NCBI GenBank assembly: GCA_050951805.1
Contig: JBMNJT010000002.1
Span: forward strand, 1,216,001-1,280,000
Direction: 5' to 3'
Origin: Bacillota bacterium
Lineage (GTDB): Bacteria > Bacillota > DTU025
DNA length: 64,000 bases
In this document: positions 1-31,798 of the stretch, in pieces
Numbering within the stretch: position 1 is the stretch's first letter
Layout of the letters: each line of letters begins with the position of its first letter
The notes under the pieces: generated by a model
What the model was told of the DNA's origin: nothing
Database searches by the model: none
What the model saw: only the letters and a program-made list of their open reading frames with translations
Program-made: the position numbers and the translations under genes

Positions 1-868
1 GAGATTCGCGTCGAACTCCGATGTATTCTCCGCTGTCTGCGGAGCCTTAGCCTTTGTGCTGCGTTCAGTCGATGCCGTCCCAGACCTGGAGCCTGTTAAG
101 CCCACAGCAGGATGGGGCCAGACGGGTGCAGTATCTAGGCAATGGCGGGGGCCGGGCGCCTCATATGGAGGTGAGCCTCAACATCTTACCATCTCGTCAT
201 GGGATCGGGAGAGCGCGTTCCGTGAGGTGAGGCCTGCGTCCGGACTGGGCGTTGCTCTTGGGCTGGCTCCGGCAAGATCAGGCCTTGCAGGCGCGGTCCC
301 TGAGGTTATTGGACAGCTGGATGATACGTATATTCTTGCGCAAGGTGCCGAAGGCTTGGTCATAATAGATCAGCATGTCGCACACGAACGTATTTTGGTG
401 GACAAATACCGGGAGGAATTCGCGAAGGAGAAGCCGTCTGTCCAGCTCCTTCTGACACCTGAGATCGCAGAGATAGGCGCGTCGGACGTGGAGATCGTGG
501 CCAAACACGGAGACGTTCTGTCGAGAATGGGTTATGATCTAGACCTGTTCGGTGCGACCTCTGTCGTGATCAGAGGAGTCCCCTCTCAGAGCGCCGGGGT
601 GCCGCCGGCAGAGTCGCTCATGGCCGCCATCGAAGGGATTGTCTCGGCGCCTTCAGGGTCTGATCCCGGATTGCTGGCAGATCATATCGCGGTGTCGCTT
701 GCATGCCGCGGAGCGGTGAAGGCAGGCGATTCTCTCACTATTGCTGAAATGAAGTCTCTTGTGGAGAGGTTGTTCGAATCTGAGGATCCCTATCGGTGTC
801 CGCATGGACGGCCCGTGGTCGTGCTAGTGCCGGGGGATGCGTTGGCAAGGAGTTTTGGGCGCAAGTAA
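1..868 (+). CDS. mutL: DNA mismatch repair endonuclease MutL, C-terminal part (5' end outside window)
   Basis: DQHVAHER endonuclease motif, ACRGAVKAG, CPHGRP; context upstream of miaA. Confidence 0.95.
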   Translation, partial: RFASNSDVFSAVCGALAFVLRSVDAVPDLEPVKPTAGWGQTGAVSRQWRGPGASYGGEPQHLTISSWDRESAFREVRPASGLGVALGLAPARSGLAGAVPEVIGQLDDTYILAQGAEGLVIIDQHVAHERILVDKYREEFAKEKPSVQLLLTPEIAEIGASDVEIVAKHGDVLSRMGYDLDLFGATSVVIRGVPSQSAGVPPAESLMAAIEGIVSAPSGSDPGLLADHIAVSLACRGAVKAGDSLTIAEMKSLVERLFESEDPYRCPHGRPVVVLVPGDALARSFGRK

Positions 869-1219
869 ACCGCCCCACGCCGAAAGGCAGGGGATTACTG
901 ATTGGTGCACTGTGGCTGATGGTTAGGCAAAAGTGGTGAATAGAACACCTCACGTTTACGAGGCCTATGGGTACGTCACACCTAAAGCATGCTAGATCTC
1001 GAGAAGGGTGTTTGGAGGGCCAATAGGGCACATAGCGTGTCCATGGGTTTCAGCTATTTGACAAGGTTGAGTATATGTGCCTTGTCTTCGCAAGACGTAT
1101 CACAGGCTATTGTGACATTTGGCACAAGGATCTCGGCATCGGCCAATGCTGTACGAAAGGAGGGAAAACGCTACTTCCCCCCATATCTGAGTGAGGGGGT
1201 CTTTGTAGCGTGACATTTG
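865..1219 (+). mobile_element. Non-autonomous, internally deleted IscB-type IS200/IS605 element (PATE-like) with eroded iscB fragments
   Basis: 5' end GTAAACCGCCCCACGCCGAAAGGCAGGGG like omega-RNA/HEARO 5' hairpin; fragments YGYVT, GFQLFDKVEY, ARRITGYCDI; 3' hairpin AAAGGAGGG..CGCTACTTCCCCCC..GGGGGTCTTTGTAGCG homologous to 22278-22345; followed by ATGAA. Confidence 0.75.
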
Positions 1220-10619: not shown

Positions 10620-10825
10620 CTCCGTGAAAGCATTATAACATCCCTACGCGATGAAAGAAGCCAATGCACAAAAGTCTTTTAAGATAATTCATACAAAGTT
10701 GATCCGCGAGAGCAGCGAATATGTAGTTTGAGCCCAGCTGAGGAGCAATTTGACAACGTGACGGTTTGGTGGTAGCATAGATCAAAGAAGAGTAGATCAT
10801 AGAGGGTATGATCATGCGCCGCCAG

Positions 10826-10965
10826 GCGCAATCGCTGAATCTTCCCAGCAGGGGAGAGCGGGGGACCCATATCATATGGCAGGGGCGAATCCTGCAGGTG
10901 TGCAGGTAGGGCTAATTCCTTCAGCCCGAGCCCGTCAGCTAACCTCGTAAGCGCTAAGAAGGGAC
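10826..10965 (+). ncRNA. c-di-AMP (ydaO/yuaA) riboswitch
   Basis: GCTGAAT..AGCGGGGGACCC..GGGGCGAATCC..GTAGGG..CCCGAGCCCGTCAGCTAACCTCGTAAGCG consensus blocks. Confidence 0.9.
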
Positions 10966-10973
10966 GCCCATTT

Positions 10974-15983: not shown

Positions 15984-18140
15984 TCAACTGGAGTAGAAAA
16001 CTCTCTTCACGCGGATGCCTATCCGGCTGAGCAACTCATTGGTTATCGTTCCGGCATCGGCAGCTGCTTGTTCTGCCGTGATCTCCGCAGAACCGTCTCT
16101 GCCGATCAATGTGGCGACATCGCCGCGCTTCACGTCCGGGATCCCGGTGACGTCGACCATCAGCTGATCCATGCATATTCGGCCTATAATGGGTGCACGG
16201 CATCCATGGATCAATACTGAGCCTCTGCCGCCCGAGAGATTGCGTGGAATCCCGTCCCCGTACCCGATTGGGAGGATGGCGACACAAGTATCACGCTCGG
16301 CAATGAAGTGGCGACCATAGCCGACGCTTTCCCCGGCTGTAACGGTTCTAACAAGCGAAACCCGTGCCTTCAACGACAGGACATTTTTTATGTCCAGGTG
16401 GAGCCTGGTCTGATCATGGGGCGAGCTCAGTGTGCCGTACAATGCAATCCCGACTCTTGCATAATCGCATTTAAGCATTGGATAGTTAAGGAGGCCATAA
16501 CTGCTTTGAACGTGTATCTTGGGAAGGGTGACGTTTTGCTCCCGGAGCGTCTCCAGGAGATGGTAAAACCTATCTATCTGCATTTCTGTAAATTGAGCGT
16601 CTTCCGGTTCCATGCTATCTGAGACGGAAAGGTGAGTGTAGATTCCGTCAATACAAAGATTCTTGAGGCCGAAGATGCTGGCAATCTCCGATACATGATC
16701 CCAGGGCTCTCCCATACGGTGCATGCCGGTGTCCACTTTGATGTGGACGTGTATTGGTTTCCCGCAAGCATTGAGGCGCACAGCGTGTTCTCGATCGACG
16801 ACTGTCTGCGACAAACGGTAGCGGGCGAGCTCGCCAGCTCTTTCGGGCACAGTGTAGCCGAGTATCAGGATTGTTCCTCTGATTCCATGTTTTCGCAGGC
16901 GAATTCCTTCATCGATAGCGGCAACCGCGAAGGCATCGATTCCTATCTGATTCAGATGTTTTGCAACTTCCACATCGCCATGCCCGTATGCATTGCCTTT
17001 GACGGCAGCCATTAGTTTACATCCATCCGGCATAGCTTTGCGCAGGACTTGGACGTTGTGGCTCAGGCAGGTTAGGTCGATCTCAGCCCACGCCCTGTCC
17101 ATAGTGGCGTGTTCAGGAGCGAGCTCTCTGTTTTGAAAGACTCGCAGCAACAACAGGATCGCTTCTGCGGCAGCAAGGGAAGATACTGCTACGGCAAGAA
17201 AATGGATGACGCTGTTAGCTATCAGCCATCGTTTGAGGCCCGCGGCTTTGGCAAGCCATCGAACGAGTATGATCATCATGGGATGGACTAAATAGATGAG
17301 CGTAGAGATGTCCCGCAGCTCTTTGCGCGTTTTGCCATTGATGTGTAGCAGGCTCTGAAAAAGGAGAGCCGCGCAGGGCAGGAGCGTAAGGTACATGCTA
17401 TCGTGCCTTGGGATCCCGCAGGTGTGAAGGAGAAGCGCTTCTGCCAGCATAAGAAGAAACGCAACTGCCAGCCCCGTAAAGCACGCCTTTGGCTGCAGGC
17501 GCCTCGCTGGCGGGGCCATCATGGCGCCAAGCAATAGAAAGACCGGAGCGAAGAAAAGTCCGTTCCGCGTGTAGTCCGAAACTGTGAAGACTGATGCATA
17601 GAACGATTGCAGGAATGGCACTCTTTCTGCAATTCCGTAGTAGCTGTCGCCGAACAGGCCGACCAGGTAGAGGATGAAGGCTATGCCAAAGGCGTGGCCA
17701 GGGCCGAGCCTTTTCAGCAACAGCCAGGCAATGGTCGCGCCGATCATCGCTGCCGGCAGATACCATAAGTGATAAAACGTGCCGTCAAACACAATGTCCT
17801 TCAGCAGTTCTTTGGCCAGATGTTCAGTTCTGAAGGTTCCCGCATAGATGTTGACAGGGAGATACAGCAAAGTTGAAATGGCGTACAACGCGGCCGTTTT
17901 CCTCAGAAAGCGAAACAGCCTTGCGCGGTCCGCTTCGCTGTCTGTCGCCTTTCCACGAAACAGGAAAAATCCTGAGGTCATGAAGAAGAACGGCACTGCT
18001 ACACGGGCAATTATCCTTGTCAGGATGAAATCAGCGGTCCCGTTCACTGACGACAGGGGGGAAGTGTGGTTAGCCACTACGAGAAATGCAGCGATTATTC
18101 TGAAGTAATCAATACCGGGGAACTCTTCCTGCAGATTCAT
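15984..18140 (-). CDS. vanT: Membrane-bound serine racemase VanT
   Basis: N-terminal multi-TM domain (IDYFRIIAAFLVVANHTSP) fused to PLP racemase (VKGNAYGHG, RICMDQ). Confidence 0.93.
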   Translation of the reverse strand: MNLQEEFPGIDYFRIIAAFLVVANHTSPLSSVNGTADFILTRIIARVAVPFFFMTSGFFLFRGKATDSEADRARLFRFLRKTAALYAISTLLYLPVNIYAGTFRTEHLAKELLKDIVFDGTFYHLWYLPAAMIGATIAWLLLKRLGPGHAFGIAFILYLVGLFGDSYYGIAERVPFLQSFYASVFTVSDYTRNGLFFAPVFLLLGAMMAPPARRLQPKACFTGLAVAFLLMLAEALLLHTCGIPRHDSMYLTLLPCAALLFQSLLHINGKTRKELRDISTLIYLVHPMMIILVRWLAKAAGLKRWLIANSVIHFLAVAVSSLAAAEAILLLLRVFQNRELAPEHATMDRAWAEIDLTCLSHNVQVLRKAMPDGCKLMAAVKGNAYGHGDVEVAKHLNQIGIDAFAVAAIDEGIRLRKHGIRGTILILGYTVPERAGELARYRLSQTVVDREHAVRLNACGKPIHVHIKVDTGMHRMGEPWDHVSEIASIFGLKNLCIDGIYTHLSVSDSMEPEDAQFTEMQIDRFYHLLETLREQNVTLPKIHVQSSYGLLNYPMLKCDYARVGIALYGTLSSPHDQTRLHLDIKNVLSLKARVSLVRTVTAGESVGYGRHFIAERDTCVAILPIGYGDGIPRNLSGGRGSVLIHGCRAPIIGRICMDQLMVDVTGIPDVKRGDVATLIGRDGSAEITAEQAAADAGTITNELLSRIGIRVKRVFYSS

Positions 18141-18901
18141 CCCAAATGCCTCCATAATGTCACCACAAAGCCATCATCGTTGTTCCCGGATACCTGAAAA
18201 GGGATTCTGTCCGGCAGTTCGATTTCAACCTCCTGACCTGGTTCGACGGGGACATGAAAAATCTCGAAGTCGTAGTTGTCGTGCTTGATCCGAAGATGTG
18301 CTCCGTCGAAGGGAAAGTGCTTGAGGCAGTCAGTATACTCCTCCAGCGTAAACTCATTTCCCCTGATCAGTTGGGAATGGGGATAGCCAACGTAGCGAAA
18401 ATGCCAGGGCTCGTGTGCAATTTGGGTGATGGATTCCCGTCCAGCCGGGTAGCGCTGGATGAATCCATACTGTACTGACAGCTTCCGGAACTCTTGACAG
18501 ATTCCGGTGTAAGGGAAGTATGGCCGGATGAAATCGATGTCCGGCCTGTTTTCTCCCAAATCGATTGCTAGTCCGGTCTGGTGCTCGCTGCATCCCACAG
18601 TTGCGACGTATTTCTTCGTAAACTCCTTCCCGTTTTCGCGCATGGAATCGGCGTATATAGCCTGCTGTTCCTGCATCGTGCGATAACCGCTGACTGGTAC
18701 GATTTGATCCTCGCATTGCAAGAGAGCAGCCACTTCTGCCAGCATCCTTGCTGTTTGCCTTTCTAGAACGATCTCGGGAAAGGCAGGGCGAATAGGCACA
18801 AGCACTTCATCGGCTGGTGTCGTCGCAAGTGGATGAGAGGGATTGACGAGGATGAGGTTGCCCTTGCCAATGTCCTCTGCATAGAGTTTCAGCGTTCTCA
18901 T
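18137..18901 (-). CDS. vanXY: D,D-dipeptidase/D,D-carboxypeptidase VanXY
   Basis: M15B motifs SGYR, SEHQTGLAID, EPWHFRYVG; no TM anchor; between ligase and vanT. Confidence 0.85.
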   Translation of the reverse strand: MRTLKLYAEDIGKGNLILVNPSHPLATTPADEVLVPIRPAFPEIVLERQTARMLAEVAALLQCEDQIVPVSGYRTMQEQQAIYADSMRENGKEFTKKYVATVGCSEHQTGLAIDLGENRPDIDFIRPYFPYTGICQEFRKLSVQYGFIQRYPAGRESITQIAHEPWHFRYVGYPHSQLIRGNEFTLEEYTDCLKHFPFDGAHLRIKHDNYDFEIFHVPVEPGQEVEIELPDRIPFQVSGNNDDGFVVTLWRHLG

Positions 18902-19953
18902 CGGTCGATCGCCAGCCTTATAAGCGTGTCTACAATCTGCTCAAAGCTCATTCCAATCCCCTTTAGCATGTTGGGATACCGGCTATGGGTGGTGAAACCG
19001 GGTATGGTGTTGACTTCATTGAAGACGATATCTTCTTCAGGAGTGAGGAACATGTCAACTCGCGCGTACCCCGAACACTCCAGAGCCCTGTAGATGACGA
19101 TAGCTGTTTGCTTGATGCGTGCAGCAGTCTCCACATCGATCCGCGCAGGCATATGGATCTTCGAAGTTTTCAACGTATATTTCTCGGTGTAATCGAAGAA
19201 GCCGTTGCAGAGCTCGATCTCGTCCACCTCTCCAATGGTGAGTACGTCATTGCCGAGGACAGCACAGCCGACCTCGAATCCATCAATTGATTCCTCTATT
19301 ACTACTTTTCTATCGTGTTCGAAGGCAGCACTGACTGCACAGGCAAGCCCGCTTTCCTGGGAAACCTTAGTAATGCCGAAGGAGGAGCCGGCATTTGCCG
19401 GTTTCACAAAGAGTGGGTATTTCAGGTGCGCAATCCGCTTAAGCAGCTCCGCTTCGGAGACGTAAGAGTGCAGCACAATCGATGGAGGTGTTTTTACTCC
19501 AGCCAGGCTGACTATTCTGTGAGCTATGTCCTTGTCCATGCACATGGCTGAGCTCAATACGCCACATCCAACACAGGGGATGCCCGCCATTTCCAGTAGG
19601 CCTTGAACTGTTCCGTCCTCGCCGTTCTTCCCATGTAGAACCGGAAAGGCAACGTCGATTCGGGTCGTGGTTACCTTGTTGCCGTGAAATTCAAGTATCC
19701 CATGGGTATTTCGATCGGGAGAAATGATGGCCGGAACGGAGACGCTGTGATCCATCCACGTATTGTCCTTGATCTGCTCCACAGGACCGGTGAATCTCAT
19801 CCAAGCTCCCTGGCGGGTAATCCCGAGCAGTATCAAGTCGTATTCTTCAGGGTTGAGGTTGGTGATTACCGAATAGGCCGACTGCAGCGATATTTCATAC
19901 TCCGTGGAAGATCCGCCGAATATCACGGCTACTCTTGTTCGTTTCATGTTCAT
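18898..19953 (-). CDS. vanG: D-alanine--D-serine ligase VanG-type
   Basis: PVLHGKNGEDG, omega loop FDYTEKY, NEVNTIPGFT; operon with vanT. Confidence 0.9.
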   Translation of the reverse strand: MNMKRTRVAVIFGGSSTEYEISLQSAYSVITNLNPEEYDLILLGITRQGAWMRFTGPVEQIKDNTWMDHSVSVPAIISPDRNTHGILEFHGNKVTTTRIDVAFPVLHGKNGEDGTVQGLLEMAGIPCVGCGVLSSAMCMDKDIAHRIVSLAGVKTPPSIVLHSYVSEAELLKRIAHLKYPLFVKPANAGSSFGITKVSQESGLACAVSAAFEHDRKVVIEESIDGFEVGCAVLGNDVLTIGEVDEIELCNGFFDYTEKYTLKTSKIHMPARIDVETAARIKQTAIVIYRALECSGYARVDMFLTPEEDIVFNEVNTIPGFTTHSRYPNMLKGIGMSFEQIVDTLIRLAIDR

Positions 19954-20449
19954 GACTCCTTGTCTCTACGGTCTTGGCGTTTACGTGGTGTTCTGCGGGT
20001 TGACAGCGGCGGGGGATGAAGGCCTCCGCAAGCTGTTTCCTTCTCAAACACGCAACGTAATCTATGAAGTAGAAACGCCTGCGTGATTCGTTAATCTAAC
20101 CTTATCCGAATCAGGCAGGCTAAAAAGTAGGCTCTGCTTGTAGAAATCTTAAGAAATACTTACGGACGACTCATTGTTCTGTTAATCTCGGCGGCCGGTG
20201 CATTTGATTGTGCTCAAGGTGGTTTCACCCGATTGGCGAATTGTTATGGGATAAAAGTGTGTGGGGGAAGCCAACACAAGACAGGAAAGCAACATGGGAG
20301 GAGAGATATGAGGAACGAGATGGGTGAGCCGATAGCCAATCACGGGTATGGCTCCGCATGTCTCGCGCAATTCGGATGACATGGCGAATTGCGGCGACGT
20401 GATTCGCGTCGCGAGTGCATGGTGCAGAGCGGGGGCAATTGCATCATGA

Positions 20450-21604
20450 TTATCCAACTGTTCCATCTTGATTCGGGAGCGTAACGGTGAAAACCGTTCG
20501 TTCCTCGTTGCTTGTGGCTGTGATGTTGCCTCCATGTGCAGTAACGATCTTCTTGGCGATGGCAAGGCCCAATCCTGCACCGCCAGAATTCGTAGAACGA
20601 GAGGCATCAAGCCGGAAGAACTGGTCGAAGATCGTCTCTAGCTTGGCGGATGGAATGGGATCGCCTTGATTGGCAAAGACGATGATTACGCTTTGATCTT
20701 CCTGGCGCGCGGAGATGCGGATGATGCTGCCTCGATAGCTGTAGGCGGCGGCGTTCTTGAGGATGTTGTTGAAAACGCGGGCCAACTTGTCTGCATCTCC
20801 CCACAATGTGAGGCCATCAGGTGCATCAACGACCGCTTTCTTGCCCTCGGGCTCCAGCATGGGATAGAATTCATCCGCTACTTGGTTCAACATGAAGGAG
20901 AGGTTTATCTTGCCCTTGTTCAGTACGATGGATTGCAGGTTGAACCTAGTGATCTCGAAGAACTCATCGATCAGCTGCTCCAGCCGGTAGGCCTTTTCCA
21001 AGGTGATGCCCACGTATTTGGCTCTTTGCTCCGGCGGCATGTCGGGGGCTTCATCCAGAAGGCTCAGGTAGCCAATGACGGAGGTGAGAGGCGTTTTGAT
21101 ATCGTGTGCCAGATAGACCACGAGGTCATTCTTGCGTTGCTCCGCTTCCTGCGCATCCCATTTTTGTCTTTCCAGCGTTCCTTTTATCTTGTTCAGCTTT
21201 GTTTCCATGTGTGCTAGTTCAGGTGATAGGATTATGTCGCTGCCGGGTTTGTCAACAAGCTGATCGATCCCGGCACTGATCTCGTCGAAGTATTTGGCAA
21301 ACCATGACAGCGAGAACCTGAGGAAAATCAGTATGAAAACGATGATAGCGATGAACACGTATAGAAGGGCATTGTCGCTGAATACTTCTTGCCAAATGCG
21401 ACCAGCTTCATCGTTGGACAGGTGAAATGCTTTTTCTAGGAAGTTCACAACGTTGGGCCGGAAACGCCACATGGTTAGTAGGCACAGAAAAAACACTACT
21501 GCAACTGCGGAGAGAACAATCAGAAGCATCCTGCGAAAGACTTTCTTCTTTAGTCTTGAGTAGTCGCCTTTGTCCCTTTTCCTATTTCTCAATCTTGTAG
21601 CCAA
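20450..21604 (-). CDS. vanS: Sensor histidine kinase VanS
   Basis: YLAHDIKTPLTSVIGYL, two TMs, GAGLGLAIAK. Confidence 0.9.
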   Translation of the reverse strand: MATRLRNRKRDKGDYSRLKKKVFRRMLLIVLSAVAVVFFLCLLTMWRFRPNVVNFLEKAFHLSNDEAGRIWQEVFSDNALLYVFIAIIVFILIFLRFSLSWFAKYFDEISAGIDQLVDKPGSDIILSPELAHMETKLNKIKGTLERQKWDAQEAEQRKNDLVVYLAHDIKTPLTSVIGYLSLLDEAPDMPPEQRAKYVGITLEKAYRLEQLIDEFFEITRFNLQSIVLNKGKINLSFMLNQVADEFYPMLEPEGKKAVVDAPDGLTLWGDADKLARVFNNILKNAAAYSYRGSIIRISARQEDQSVIIVFANQGDPIPSAKLETIFDQFFRLDASRSTNSGGAGLGLAIAKKIVTAHGGNITATSNEERTVFTVTLPNQDGTVG

Positions 21605-22277
21605 CTCCCCATACCGTCTTTATGTATTTGGGATTTTCCGCAGAATCGTTCATCTTCTCCCTCAGATGGCGGATGTGCACCATGACCGTGTTGTTACTAG
21701 TAAAATACTTCTCACCCCATACCTCGCGGAACAACTCTTCGGAACTGACCACGCGGCCCCGATTGGATGCCAACATCCACAGGATGTCAAATTCTGTCGG
21801 GGTTAGGGATAACGGCCTCTCGTTGAGCGTGCATTCATGGGCATCCTTGTCAATGACCAAGCCTGCAGACGCGATCACATTCTCCTCATCAGCTGGTTCA
21901 GAGGGATTGTACCTTGTGTACCTGCGAAGCTGCGCCTTAACTCGGGCCACCATCTCGAGCGGTCGGAATGGTTTTGTAATATAATCGTCTGCGCCCAGTG
22001 TGAGGCCTGTGATCTTGTCGATCTCCTCATCCTTCGCCGTGAGCATGATGATAGGGAAGTTGTGTTTCTCCCGGATCTTTTGGCAGATCTCAAACCCGGT
22101 CATGTCGGGGAGCATCACGTCCAGGATTGCCAGATCCAGTGGTTCACTTTCTACAAGGGCTAAGGCATCCTGCCCGTTATGGGACTTGAAAACAATGTAG
22201 TTCTCGTTTCTTAAGTACAGTTCAATCAAGTCTGCGATGGCTTTCTCATCATCAACAACTAGTATACGGTCATTCAT
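21582..22277 (-). CDS. vanR: Response regulator VanR (OmpR family)
   Basis: ILVVDDE, GADDYITKPF, NTVMVHIRHLREK, KTVWGVGY. Confidence 0.92.
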   Translation of the reverse strand: MNDRILVVDDEKAIADLIELYLRNENYIVFKSHNGQDALALVESEPLDLAILDVMLPDMTGFEICQKIREKHNFPIIMLTAKDEEIDKITGLTLGADDYITKPFRPLEMVARVKAQLRRYTRYNPSEPADEENVIASAGLVIDKDAHECTLNERPLSLTPTEFDILWMLASNRGRVVSSEELFREVWGEKYFTSNNTVMVHIRHLREKMNDSAENPKYIKTVWGVGYKIEK

Positions 22278-22670
22278 CAAACATCACGCTACGGAGATTC
22301 CCCTTCAGGTGTGGGGAGGAAGTAGCGTTCCCCCTCCTTTCGCACAGCACTGTGCTTGCAGCTTCCTTTGAACATATCTGGACGCTTTGTTGGCTACTCC
22401 TTGTGCACTTGCCTGATTCGGTTCTTAGCTTGTTTCGAGAGATCCCAAGTGCCCGGCTCTACCGTTGAGTTGCCACTTGCATCTGTACGATGGAATTTCC
22501 CAAGCCTTGCACATGTGTTTGCCTGCTCGGTGATGTACCCATGAGTTACGCCAACATTCGGGTGTGCTTTTCGTGACCGAAATCCCAACGCATTATCCCC
22601 AAGAACACCGCAACGGAAAGGTCAGCGGGGGCTCTTGCAAGCCCCTACCTTTAGGCTTGGAGTGGTTGAT
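22278..22670 (-). mobile_element. Second non-autonomous IscB-type IS200/IS605 element (PATE-like)
   Basis: Minus strand begins ATCAACCACTCCAAGCCTAAAGGTAGGGGCTTGCAAGAGCCC; iscB remnants FLGIMRW, VTHGYIT..GKFHRTDA, RQVHK; 3' hairpin homologous to 1147-1219; abuts ATGAA of vanR. Confidence 0.8.
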
Positions 22671-23292
22671 CGTCCTCAATTCATTATACCTTTCCTGACG
22701 GGCCTGTGCCCTACGACATCATCTACATCCTGGATCCGAGATGAGATGCTCGATCCGTGGATAATCCGTGTGACGGCTGCGGATTGTGGGTCGCAGGACA
22801 GACTGACAATGGCGAAGCTGTCTCTAGTGCCATGAATTAACCTGATGATTCGAAGAAGGGCTGTTGCCTTACCGAAGCGAAGACAGATGGAGGCTCTGAA
22901 GGAGATTGTATTTTGAGGAGTGGGAGAGGGCTGAGTCAACCGGCGCAAGCTTGTCAGTGATCAACAGAGCTTCTGGGGAAATCGAGACGGACTGGTACAG
23001 CCGCCTCACAGGAGTGGAGTTGGAGCAGGCAAGATAAGAATGGGGGAGGGGCACGTAGTATTCGCAAAGAAGAGGGCCTTATGGCATTAGTTGTCATGGC
23101 TAGAGCAAGTTCATGTCCAATGTGTTAGTGCCTACAGCTTCTTTCTTTGAATCGCAGAGCCCTTGCTTTGGGAAACCTAGCTGCTATCCCACAGCAATGG
23201 CGAGGAAGCTTGGTTTGACTGTAGCTATCCGCATTCATGAGCACTTGCAAGCATTTGGAAATGTCAATATCTTAAGTGGTGAGGTGAAAAAC

Positions 23293-25552: not shown

Positions 25553-27147
25553 TGTCAACCGACTGTGAAAATGTCACCCCTTTTGGGGGTTAATCCGACT
25601 GAGAAAATGTCACCCCTGTGGTTGTGTTCCGCTGGCGACCCGCGCATTATGCTCAGGCTCGCGGCCGAGTCAAGGATCGGCCTGCGGCCTGCTTTGCTCC
25701 TTGACTCGGCCTCTGCGCCTGATTGAGATTAGGGTGCCGCCAGCGGGAAACTGTTGTTTTGTCTGTTTTTGGTCTGGGTCGCCTCGCGTGCTTGCTGAAT
25801 GTGTTGTTGACGCTCGTAGCTCGCACGTTTCCATGGATGATCATCCGGGGGCTTCCATGGCATCCTCGGGGCTTTAGGCTCTTGGGCTGCAGCCGAGGTT
25901 GAGTCTTCGATTGCCGGTGTGGAGTTGAACTCGGCTAGGCTGTAGCATTTTCCCTTGTAGAGTGCGTTGATTGACCCGTCCATGTGCGTAAGCACGAAAA
26001 CGGGATCCTTCCTGGCCAATCCGACAACGTGGCCGTATGCATCCAGAAGACGGAACTTGGTGCCATGGTAGGATATGAGTGATCCTCCCAGCCCTTGACG
26101 AGATTCCCTGATCGAAAGAATCATGTCGAGATCCATGTCGGGAGTCAGAAGACGAAAAGCGGGTGTCTCATCAGCTGCGGGAACGGCAAAACGGGCGTTG
26201 TACCTAGGAATATATCCGGGAAGGAACTGATTTGCCTGTTCGATTGTATTGATTCCGGCAAGGCGCATCTCAATAGGCAGCCTTCCCTGAAGCGTCTCCC
26301 ATGCGCGCTCAATACGGCCCTTTGCTTGAGGCGAATGCGCTGGTATGTGAGTGATCTGTAGTTCATCGAGAATGCGGCCTATCTGGGTAAGATTAACCCG
26401 CTTTCCCTGGAGTTGTTCTTCGATGGTGAGCTTGTCCATCTTGGGCGAGAAAAACATGGTATGGCGGTCAGAATACAAGCACAGCGGTATGCCGTTGTTC
26501 TCGAGCACCTGACGGAACACATGGAGGTATCCTATGATGTCTTCCTGAGGCCTGAAATACAGGCCCAGGATGGCTCCGGTGGCATCATCGATGATCCCAT
26601 GAAGCGACATAGCTGGGCCTCTTCCTTCGAGCCAGTCATAGGGACTGGCATCGCATTGGAGCAAGATCCCCGATTGGGGTTTTCGCTCTCGCATGCGTCT
26701 GTGGCGCGGGGCTCTTTTGGTGGAGCACACTATCCCGGCCCTCTTAAGCAATCGTTGTACAGTGCGTGGACTCACCGAGATCTGATAGCCCTCTGCCATG
26801 AGCTCGGACATATGGGTGCAATTTGCGTCTTTCAGGTCGGTCTGAGCTAGCTCGATGATGCGTGCCGCGATTGATGGGTCTAAAGCATGCTTGGGCTTGC
26901 GTCCGGCATTGCCATGCCCTAGGGCCTGGATTCCGTTACTCTGCATCTCCTTTTTGATCCGTTTGATCTGGCGGACACTTAATCCAAGCATGTTGGCAGC
27001 CTGCGCGTTTGTGATTTGCCCGGCGGCAAGCTGATCCATTACGAAGACCCTCTTCCGTAATTTTTCCGTCAAGATGATGTCCCCCTTGTTCATGGGTGAC
27101 ATTATCTCAGACGCGTTATGGGGTGACAATATCACAGACGCGTAACA
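25553..27147 (-). mobile_element. IS1202/ISNCY-like insertion sequence with 16-bp target duplication
   Basis: TGT..ACA ends with doubled subterminal repeats (AAAATGTCACCC / ATAATGTCACCC); GGAAATCTATGGCGTG at 25537-25552 and 27148-27163. Confidence 0.88.
25729..27093 (-). CDS. rve-type DDE transposase (ISNCY/IS1202)
   Basis: HTH, QCDASPYDW, IDDATG, YSDRH, PQAKGRIER. Confidence 0.92.
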   Translation of the reverse strand: MNKGDIILTEKLRKRVFVMDQLAAGQITNAQAANMLGLSVRQIKRIKKEMQSNGIQALGHGNAGRKPKHALDPSIAARIIELAQTDLKDANCTHMSELMAEGYQISVSPRTVQRLLKRAGIVCSTKRAPRHRRMRERKPQSGILLQCDASPYDWLEGRGPAMSLHGIIDDATGAILGLYFRPQEDIIGYLHVFRQVLENNGIPLCLYSDRHTMFFSPKMDKLTIEEQLQGKRVNLTQIGRILDELQITHIPAHSPQAKGRIERAWETLQGRLPIEMRLAGINTIEQANQFLPGYIPRYNARFAVPAADETPAFRLLTPDMDLDMILSIRESRQGLGGSLISYHGTKFRLLDAYGHVVGLARKDPVFVLTHMDGSINALYKGKCYSLAEFNSTPAIEDSTSAAAQEPKAPRMPWKPPDDHPWKRASYERQQHIQQAREATQTKNRQNNSFPLAAP

Positions 27148-27209: not shown

Positions 27210-27287
27210 CGGGGCGTGGCGCAGTTTGGCTAGCGCGCTTGCTTGGGGTGCAAGAGGTCGGGAGTTCAAATCTCCCCGCTCCGACCA
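27210..27287 (+). tRNA. tRNA-Pro(GGG)
   Basis: Cloverleaf, anticodon arm CTTGC-TTGGGGT-GCAAG, GTTCAAATC, CCA end. Confidence 0.95.
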
Positions 27288-31608: not shown

Positions 31609-31692
31609 TGGTGCGAGAGGAGGGATTTGAACCCTCACGGTTTTACCCGTCAGATCCTAAGTCTGATGCGTCTGCCGTTCCGCCACTCTCGC
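31609..31692 (-). tRNA. tRNA-Leu(TAG)
   Basis: Anticodon arm TCAGA-CTTAGGA-TCTGA, long variable arm, CCA. Confidence 0.95.
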
Positions 31693-31721
31693 ACGTACTG
31701 CTGCGAGCCGAGGCATAAGAA

Positions 31722-31798
31722 TGGTCGAGGTGCCGGGATTTGAACCCGGGGCCTCTTGGTCCCGAACCAAGCGCGCTACCAAACTGCGCTACACCTCG
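31722..31798 (-). tRNA. tRNA-Pro(CGG)
   Basis: Anticodon arm CTTGG-TTCGGGA-CCAAG, CCA. Confidence 0.95.

Follow-up and report, generated by a model that had tools for sequence, protein, structure and literature searches.

Remains of a probable IscB-carrying transposon form the 393-nt leader of vanR in a predicted vanG-type resistance cluster

Introduction

Insertion sequences in or near the van operons of enterococci alter expression of these operons, and those found in clinical Tn1546-like elements are of the DDE type.

The closest described relative of the locus reported here is ISGst5 with its protein GstIscB, a member of the IS200/IS605 family. The part of the ISGst5 study cited here gives a transposon-adjacent motif (TAM) of TTCAT next to the left end, a HEARO RNA that is bounded by the right end with its guide encoded outside the element, scarless excision that requires only the TAM and both ends, and a bias in the orientation of the element with the upstream gene (Meers et al., bioRxiv 10.1101/2023.03.14.532601).

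The window analysed is a 64,000-nt stretch of a Bacillota genome (GTDB lineage DTU025; assembly GCA_050951805.1, contig JBMNJT010000002.1, positions 1,216,001 to 1,280,000), and all positions given without a contig label are those of this window unless stated otherwise. The original prediction, made from the letters alone, had read 393 nt of it as an IscB-derived element wedged between the start codon of vanR and the upstream signals of that gene, and had suggested that excision of the insert could switch on a cryptic resistance. We conclude that the insert is very probably what is left of an IscB-carrying IS200/IS605 transposon of the ISGst5 kind and is now an old, immobile leader of vanR. 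The case for the IscB origin rests on the concordance of the comparisons given below, each single E-value being modest.

Results

vanR and its surroundings

The vanR gene (21582..22277, minus strand) encodes a protein of 231 aa with the Pfam domains Response_reg and Trans_reg_C, which scores 405 bits with the NCBIfam model vanR_ACDEGLN (cut-off 350). On the minus strand the gene starts with ATGAAT at 22277, the product begins MNDRILVVDDE and its N-terminus aligns with those of the orthologues. The first 5 nt of the gene (ATGAA, 22277-22273) double as a transposon-adjacent motif, being TTCAT on the plus strand. The rest of the vanG-type cluster lies at 15984..21604 on the minus strand with all frames open and consists of vanS (20450-21604; NCBIfam VanS 401.7 against a cut-off of 400), the vanG ligase gene (18898-19953; VanG 570, cut-off 495), a vanXY-like gene (18137-18901; VanXY 210, below the cut-off of 250) and vanT (15984-18155; vanT-G-Cterm 577.7, cut-off 460). 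With vanR, vanS and the genes for the VanG ligase, the VanXY-like protein and VanT in one block, this is a predicted vanG-type D-Ala-D-Ser resistance cluster. VanR shares 85% and 81% identity with its orthologues in two sister genera (represented by G004 and G003 respectively), whereas the housekeeping neighbours SAM_MT and Rrf2 are 57-69% identical; as VanR is thus closer across sister genera than housekeeping genes are, the van cluster (15984-22277) looks to have been shared horizontally within the family. The best match to VanR in the same genus is a paralogue with 48% identity. A few kb from the van cluster a 468-aa ORF (25729-27135, minus strand) with HTH domains and a weak match to the rve_3 integrase core adjoins tRNA genes (27210-27284, plus strand, and 31612-31798, minus strand), and this region may be another mobile element or the border of an island. 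The window also holds a c-di-AMP riboswitch (ydaO/yuaA leader, 10823-10967, plus strand, 93.4 bits).

The native flank on the far side of the element (22671..22690, minus strand) reads GGTATAATGAATTGAGGACG and contains GG-TATAAT (22688-22683) and GAGGA (22677-22673), which are likely to be the old −10 box and Shine–Dalgarno sequence of vanR. The GAGGA is now 395 nt from the ATG. The same flank would once have been the guide-encoding flank of an omega-RNA.

Parts and boundaries of the element

The element occupies 22278..22670 on the minus strand (393 nt, in the same sense as vanR) and is now the 5′ leader of this gene, its right boundary being the vanR ATG and its left boundary the flank GGTATAATGAATTGAGGACG. 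At the 5′ edge a covariance model (R1), for which nothing but 11 true HEARO 5′ domains from other genomes was used, has its top match in 78 kb at 22669-22622 (18.7 bits, E 0.02), and at the 3′ edge five paralogous copies all end in GTAGCGTGAYATYYG followed directly by ATGAA. The first part (22622..22670, minus strand), which is the right end of the transposon in the published naming, is a stub of about 50 nt from the 5′ domain of HEARO/omega-RNA with the first helix, a CCCC..GGGG hairpin and a CTTG..CAAG hairpin; the hairpin near the 5′ end of the element is GGGGCTTGCAAGAGCCCC. The rest of the scaffold of about 211 nt has been deleted, leaving some 50 of the 211 HEARO positions, and the first helix is eroded in the vanR copy (two marked non-pairs in the R1 alignment).

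The stub is followed by the remnant of an iscB pseudogene (22289..22611, minus strand) that covers, in the numbering of intact IscBs, residues 259-371 or so with the K.H..DA stretch of RuvC-III, so that about 100 of more than 370 codons are retained. Its translation contains AVFLGIMRWDF, followed by some 90 further codons with a match to IscB residues 272-371 or so. The reading frame is shifted near 22579 and interrupted by an in-frame TAG (22396-22394), and its end has moved to another TAG (22291-22289). By blastx against 30 ORFs of IscB loci the vanR copy matched the loci L044 (E 2e-6) and L052 (E 1e-5), and in the other direction tblastn of the L052 IscB against the whole genome matched the vanR copy at 1238573-1238316 (contig numbering) with E 0.002. 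The 64-aa iscB fragment alone gave no NCBIfam family and no homologue in a search of 5.8 billion proteins, and a custom IscB profile, built from 27 ORFs of which some are probably not IscB, matched only HNH genes in the six-frame translation of the genome. Two such HNH genes (C8:305635 and C2:396759) were considered as IscB and rejected, as their products are 194 and 311 aa long and are without RRXRR.

Next to the pseudogene end lies a subterminal hairpin at the left end of the transposon (22287..22327, minus strand), for which RNAalifold gave the consensus CGCTAC-TTCC-TCCCC-loop-GGGGA-ATCTCC-GTAGCG from seven copies; it is the minimum free energy (MFE) fold in five of the six copies of this genome, the vanR copy being the exception. 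The last 9 nt (22278..22286, minus strand) are the ancestral iscB stop codon TGA (22286-22284), which is in frame with the vanR ATG, and a 6-nt spacer that separates the two. The two ends have subterminal hairpins and are not inverted repeats of each other. Within the relic and vanR, contigs from both RNA libraries of a single study depart from the window sequence at 22286, 22298 and 22436 (and at 22239 in one run), probably through strain variation; the ancestral stop codon begins at 22286.

These results confirm the observations of the original prediction. Its label 'IscB-derived' is supported by the HEARO stub, the iscB pseudogene pieces, the end hairpin of the IS200/IS605 type and the TTCAT/ATGAA flank. 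Sequence and edge checks uphold the proposed boundaries (22278-22670, with the element ending at ATGAAT of vanR and with a −10 box and GAGGA beyond its other end), and hairpins occur as predicted at both ends (GGGGCTTGCAAGAGCCCC at one and CGCTAC..CCCC..GGGG..GTAGCG, 22327-22287, at the other). The −35 region had been described as poor, and indeed a promoter scan did not call the TATAAT site upstream of vanR. The remark that the ends are eroded holds for the first HEARO helix. The TAM and both ends can still be recognized.

Could the relic nevertheless act as an RNA in its own right, whether as a stand-alone omega-RNA or as a riboswitch, a leader or some other structured RNA with a regulatory role? 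It has a 5′ end like that of an omega-RNA and, to judge from RNA-library contigs (see below), it is transcribed with vanR. However, the full Rfam HEARO model (RF02033) gave no match at E ≤ 1 in 5 kb or at E ≤ 10 in the 441 nt around the vanR copy, nor did it match the copy next to mutL at E ≤ 10, the gathering score of this model being 83 bits and the scores of true HEAROs of relatives 96-162 bits. Rfam searches of the region, the whole window and two of the copies returned nothing relevant, the sole row being a chance match (Ms_AS-1, E 1.9) on the opposite strand. Shuffled sequences fold as well as the whole element does (MFE, z −0.11), there is no IscB in the genome for such an RNA to bind, the genes downstream of the six copies are functionally unrelated and their orthologues are without the element. 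We therefore consider a functional RNA to be extremely improbable.

Related relics in the same genome

Five diverged relatives of the element are present in its own genome, and all six relics end directly on the ATG of a co-oriented intact ORF of 156-281 aa. The six downstream genes, which are functionally unrelated and intact with their Pfam domains, encode VanR, a DUF155 protein, a zf-HC2 anti-sigma factor, an ABC-2 permease, a SAM_MT methyltransferase and an Rrf2 regulator. One of the relatives, found by nhmmer and alignment, is in the window (868..1219, plus strand) between the stop codon of mutL and the SAM_MT ATG at 1220, with miaA following; the others precede the genes for the anti-sigma factor (C8:164150-164627), the ABC-2 permease (C2:826289-826807), the Rrf2 regulator (C2:1405284-1405640) and the DUF155 protein (C3:52005-about 52170). 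The three best matches of model R1 in 78 kb are the predicted 5′ ends of three relics, namely the vanR copy, the Rrf2 copy (E 0.28) and the SAM_MT copy (hairpin at 873-893, E 0.53). All five copies tested by blastx match IscB ORFs in plus frames. When five intact IscBs were compared with the 2.75-Mb genome the six relics were the best matches (E 9e-5 to 2.4) apart from two unrelated HNH genes, and the matches were collinear and on the correct strand. Each relic keeps a different piece of iscB (about residues 53-127, 76-156, 259-371 or 367-412), which suggests that full-length insertions decayed each on its own, as opposed to the spread of a miniature element. Open frames of 75 codons in the SAM_MT copy and of 63 codons in the Rrf2 copy end at the ancestral TGA, and the tails of these frames (..AGASVA, then stop) resemble the C-terminus of the IscB of locus L045 (..AGASSAA, then stop). 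The terminal 85 nt or so is the best conserved part of the relics (73-85% identity with no indels), while their interiors have been deleted differently.

A BLAST search of 40 relatives with the element gave only a weak end-fragment in the same-genus genome G002 and a 29-nt chance match in G008. The end-fragment (locus L007, C180, about 340-422) reads GTAGGATGACATTTG followed by ATGAAG and lies some 22 nt short of the likely start codon of a gene for a small membrane protein, hence not directly on it.

A pattern for the end hairpin, which the vanR copy itself does not fit, found no locus in 185,579 species genomes and 21 loci in metagenome contigs, of which 19 are the same five sister relics before the same genes and two are chance matches, with no intact relative carrying this end among them. 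The pattern of the last 20 nt found three loci in genome contigs (Verrucomicrobia, Polyangiales and Saccharibacteria), all of them without the hairpin and thus due to chance.

Empty sites

In the vanR orthologues of the two sister genera (85% and 81% identical at the protein level) the start codon is preceded by GAGGTGA and 5 nt, and these leaders show no similarity to the element. It is an insert and not a native leader of vanR. The vanR locus itself has no close empty site, since its orthologues share only 81-85% identity and have leaders that cannot be aligned. Each of the five sister loci is empty in the same-genus genomes G001 and G002. Insertion was exact, with neither duplication nor loss of target sequence, at each of the three sites with an alignable flank (Rrf2, anti-sigma factor and mutL/SAM_MT). 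The empty sites are GGAGGTGATTCG followed by ATG at Rrf2 and GCGCTCTCTTG followed by ATG at the anti-sigma factor gene, and at the third locus mutL and the methyltransferase gene overlap by ATGA in G001 and G002, an overlap that the relic has split so that its first bases are now the stop codon of mutL.

Comparison with intact IscB elements

For comparison we used iscB loci from two genomes of the class and from 29 in a 400-genome sample of the phylum, whose upstream regions are strong HEARO matches (96-162 bits). The two same-class loci, L041 (G009, C486) and L042 (G012, C169), have an upstream HEARO of 122 and 153 bits respectively, and the iscB copy of G012 has two in-frame TAA codons in the RRXRR domain. 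L043 and L044 are identified as IscB by NCBIfam (418 and 394 bits, cut-off 175). The intact elements L043, L044 and L048 end in a hairpin and 6 to 9 nt, after which come ATTAA, ATGAA and ATGAA respectively, so that ATGAA follows all six relics and two of the three intact elements with a clear end. All three have the same architecture of the left-end hairpin as the relics with changed letters in the outer stem, and L043 also has the string AAGGGAGGGAAC..TCCTCCCC..GGGG..TGACAATTG that is seen in the relics, again with different outer-stem letters.

Mobility genes and the insert in populations

Searches of the genome (97% complete in eight contigs, so that a TnpA gene may lie on an unassembled piece) with PF01797 and NF033573 gave no match to a Y1 TnpA; as positive controls the same two models had matches in six and five of 14 genomes respectively. 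No IscB or TnpB was detected in the genome with PF14239, PF07282 or NF040563, and the only iscB sequences are the pseudogene pieces in the relics. All sampled words of the 1201-nt stretch 21900-23100, insert included, were present in 14 DNA runs from eight studies (bioreactor, landfill, sludge, digester and soil), although some of these runs may be the source of the assembly and not all are independent. Contigs of the four runs examined contained no joint lacking the insert and no indels, bearing in mind that contigs cannot show rare variants.

These findings bear on the proposal of a cryptic-resistance switch, according to which the insert keeps expression of vanRS low until a TnpA acting in trans excises it without a scar, rejoins GAGGA to the ATG and so turns the cluster on. 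Since excision in the IS200/IS605 family requires only the TAM and both ends (as given in the cited part of the ISGst5 study), it speaks for the proposal that the vanR copy still has its TAM, the hairpin of the left end and some 50 nt at the opposite end. Against it are the genome without TnpA, the lack of joints in the contigs of the four runs (where rare forms would not show), the presence of the whole insert-bearing form in the 14 DNA runs, the eroded first helix of the HEARO stub and the five other genes that carry the same arrangement and remain intact. Moreover, the spacing between GAGGA and the ATG after excision would be just 2 nt, short as had been foreseen, as compared with 8 nt between GAGG and ATG in G003 and G004. 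A switch of this kind is therefore very unlikely in this genome. Thus, of the checks that accompanied the original prediction, comparison with the upstream regions of vanR in homologous clusters favoured an insert over a conserved native leader, but the search for junctions without the insert found none in the contigs of four runs, the search of the genome for tnpA and iscB found neither, and with no TnpA and heavy decay the excision switch is not supported in this genome.

Transcription across the element–vanR junction

Two RNA-library contigs of one study bridge the junction between the element and vanR (X15, 22068-22667, and X16, 21900-22637). RNA-library contigs of two studies end at 22665-22667, where the DNA contig continues, and there is no RNA cover upstream of 22678; such contigs may include DNA and are uninformative on strand, level and true ends. 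They hint weakly at transcription that begins a short way upstream of the element, as expected from the TATAAT sequence, and continues through it into vanR. No terminator was called on the minus strand inside the element. The RNA-library contigs also bear on whether the element might be a self-splicing intron or IStron that leaves the mRNA and so restores the spacing between Shine–Dalgarno sequence and ATG. Removal at the RNA level would explain why the element is tolerated at six start codons, and the T-rich boundary region before the element and the G at its end are as in group I introns. On the other hand, the junction is unspliced in the RNA-library contigs, which show no joint, Rfam models of group I and II introns did not match at E ≤ 10 and the interior is recognizably iscB coding sequence. 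The idea, which we regard as barely conceivable, was dropped for want of an Rfam match and because the interior is iscB.

Placement on start codons and translation of vanR

With a crude gene call the genome has 6711 ATGAA sites, of which 5336 are in genes, 1170 are intergenic and 205 are at start codons. Start codons thus make up 205 of the 1375 non-genic sites (15%), and the probability that all six relics would be found there by chance is about 1e-5, an estimate that rests on the crude gene caller and on six relics of one genome. Selection against insertion into genes does not by itself explain this placement. Candidate explanations are that relics on start codons are hard to delete, that the elements benefit from read-through transcription by the host and that the transposon end has been exapted. 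None of the three intact elements with a clear flank (L043, L044 and L048) sits on a long ORF, which favours differential retention. We found no statement on start-codon placement in the cited part of the ISGst5 study or in literature searches on IscB and TnpA.

The last 22 nt of the vanR copy pair with the 16S tail at −6.2 kcal/mol (−4.4 to −6.2 kcal/mol in the six copies), as compared with a median of −5.2 kcal/mol for random sequences and of −8.8 kcal/mol for the first ATGs of long ORFs. This pairing is at the level of chance, suggesting that initiation at vanR is probably weak or is otherwise helped. The vanR copy also retains two short frames, one of 28 codons whose end lies 11 nt before the ATG and one of 26 codons whose end lies 5 nt after it, and with ends so placed termination–reinitiation at vanR may occur. 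As the six host genes and the van cluster are intact while iscB has decayed, we argue that the arrangement does not abolish expression.

It is possible, if doubtful, that the last 90 nt or so have been exapted and now serve as a selected initiation region or leader of vanR and the five other genes, either through reinitiation from iscB frames that stop 6-11 nt before the ATG or through the hairpin, which could bring the conserved AAGGAGG near the ATG. The placement of all six relics on start codons of intact genes would fit this, as would the high conservation of the terminal 85 nt between differently deleted interiors and the ancestral iscB stop codon, in frame and 6 nt before the ATG, at which a start-bearing frame still ends in four of the six copies. 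However, the same end is conserved in the distant intact element L043, and constraints imposed by the transposase before insertion explain the conservation. In two copies, those of vanR and DUF155, the frame leading to the conserved TGA is without a start codon, pairing of the last 22 nt with the 16S tail is no better than random and the z-scores of the terminal folds are unremarkable (+0.33 to −2.3). As noted, start-codon relics may simply be harder to delete, and not one of the three intact elements with a clear flank sits on a long ORF.

A broader proposal, which we consider unlikely, is that IscB elements with a TTCAT TAM are seekers of start codons whose terminal 90 nt or so is later kept as a translation-initiation region of the host. 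As ATGAA encodes Met-Lys or Met-Asn, such elements would land in the sense orientation just upstream of gene starts, host transcription would supply the guide-bearing omega-RNA and the in-frame iscB stop codon 6 nt before the ATG would allow coupled translation of the host gene. If this were true, vanR and five other genes would now depend on a transposon end for their expression.

Discussion

The most probable history of the 393-nt leader is thus that of an IscB-carrying transposon. Entry specific for a single strand beside TTCAT (ATGAA on the other strand) put the element exactly between the Shine–Dalgarno sequence and the ATG of vanR, with the omega-RNA and iscB in the same sense as this gene. 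Later the element was stripped of most of its omega-RNA scaffold and of some 260 codons from the N-terminal part of iscB, and gained a frameshift and stop codons. The relic presumably can no longer move, cut or guide and would be transcribed from the old vanR promoter as a passive leader of 393 nt, with vanR still translated but probably less efficiently than before the insertion.

This is a known kind of element in a new place, the less ordinary point being that every relic lies on a start codon. The locus offers a worked example of the fate of an IscB transposon after its death, and of how such elements come to lie on start codons, in this case that of a glycopeptide-resistance regulator, through their target motif TTCAT, which reads ATGAA on the opposite strand. 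For resistance surveillance it means that this vanG-type cluster has an unusual 393-nt regulator leader and that the presence of the genes alone does not imply their expression. The six relics on six start codons provide a testable link between the choice of TAM, read-through transcription by the host and translational coupling.

Like the IS of enterococcal van operons, the relic is a mobile element in the regulatory region of glycopeptide resistance, but it is an IscB relic and lies in a vanG-type cluster of an organism from landfill, digester and sludge metagenomes. With PATEs, the protein-less IS200/IS605 derivatives exemplified by those of ISGst1 and ISGst5, it shares its small size, its non-autonomous nature and the retention of both ends; the six relics, however, are not a uniform amplified family, as each has a different piece of iscB. 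The first 50 nt or so match the 5′ domain of HEARO RF02033 (GTCAACCACCCC..AAGG..GGGGCTTG..TGAC), but about three quarters of the scaffold is missing and the full model gives no match at E ≤ 10. Differences from elements of the ISGst5 type of Geobacillus stearothermophilus, as far as the cited part of the study describes them, are that iscB is a pseudogene of about 100 codons, that the omega-RNA is a stub of about 50 nt and that the genome is without TnpA. The ends of the relic share only their architecture with the intact elements compared here, and the likeness to ISGst5 is drawn from the motif only. Within the same limits the relic and the ISGst5 type agree in having HEARO at the right end with the guide in the flank outside, iscB in the same sense, the other end abutting TTCAT (ATGAA on the iscB strand), a scarless site-specific insertion and an orientation that matches the upstream transcription unit.
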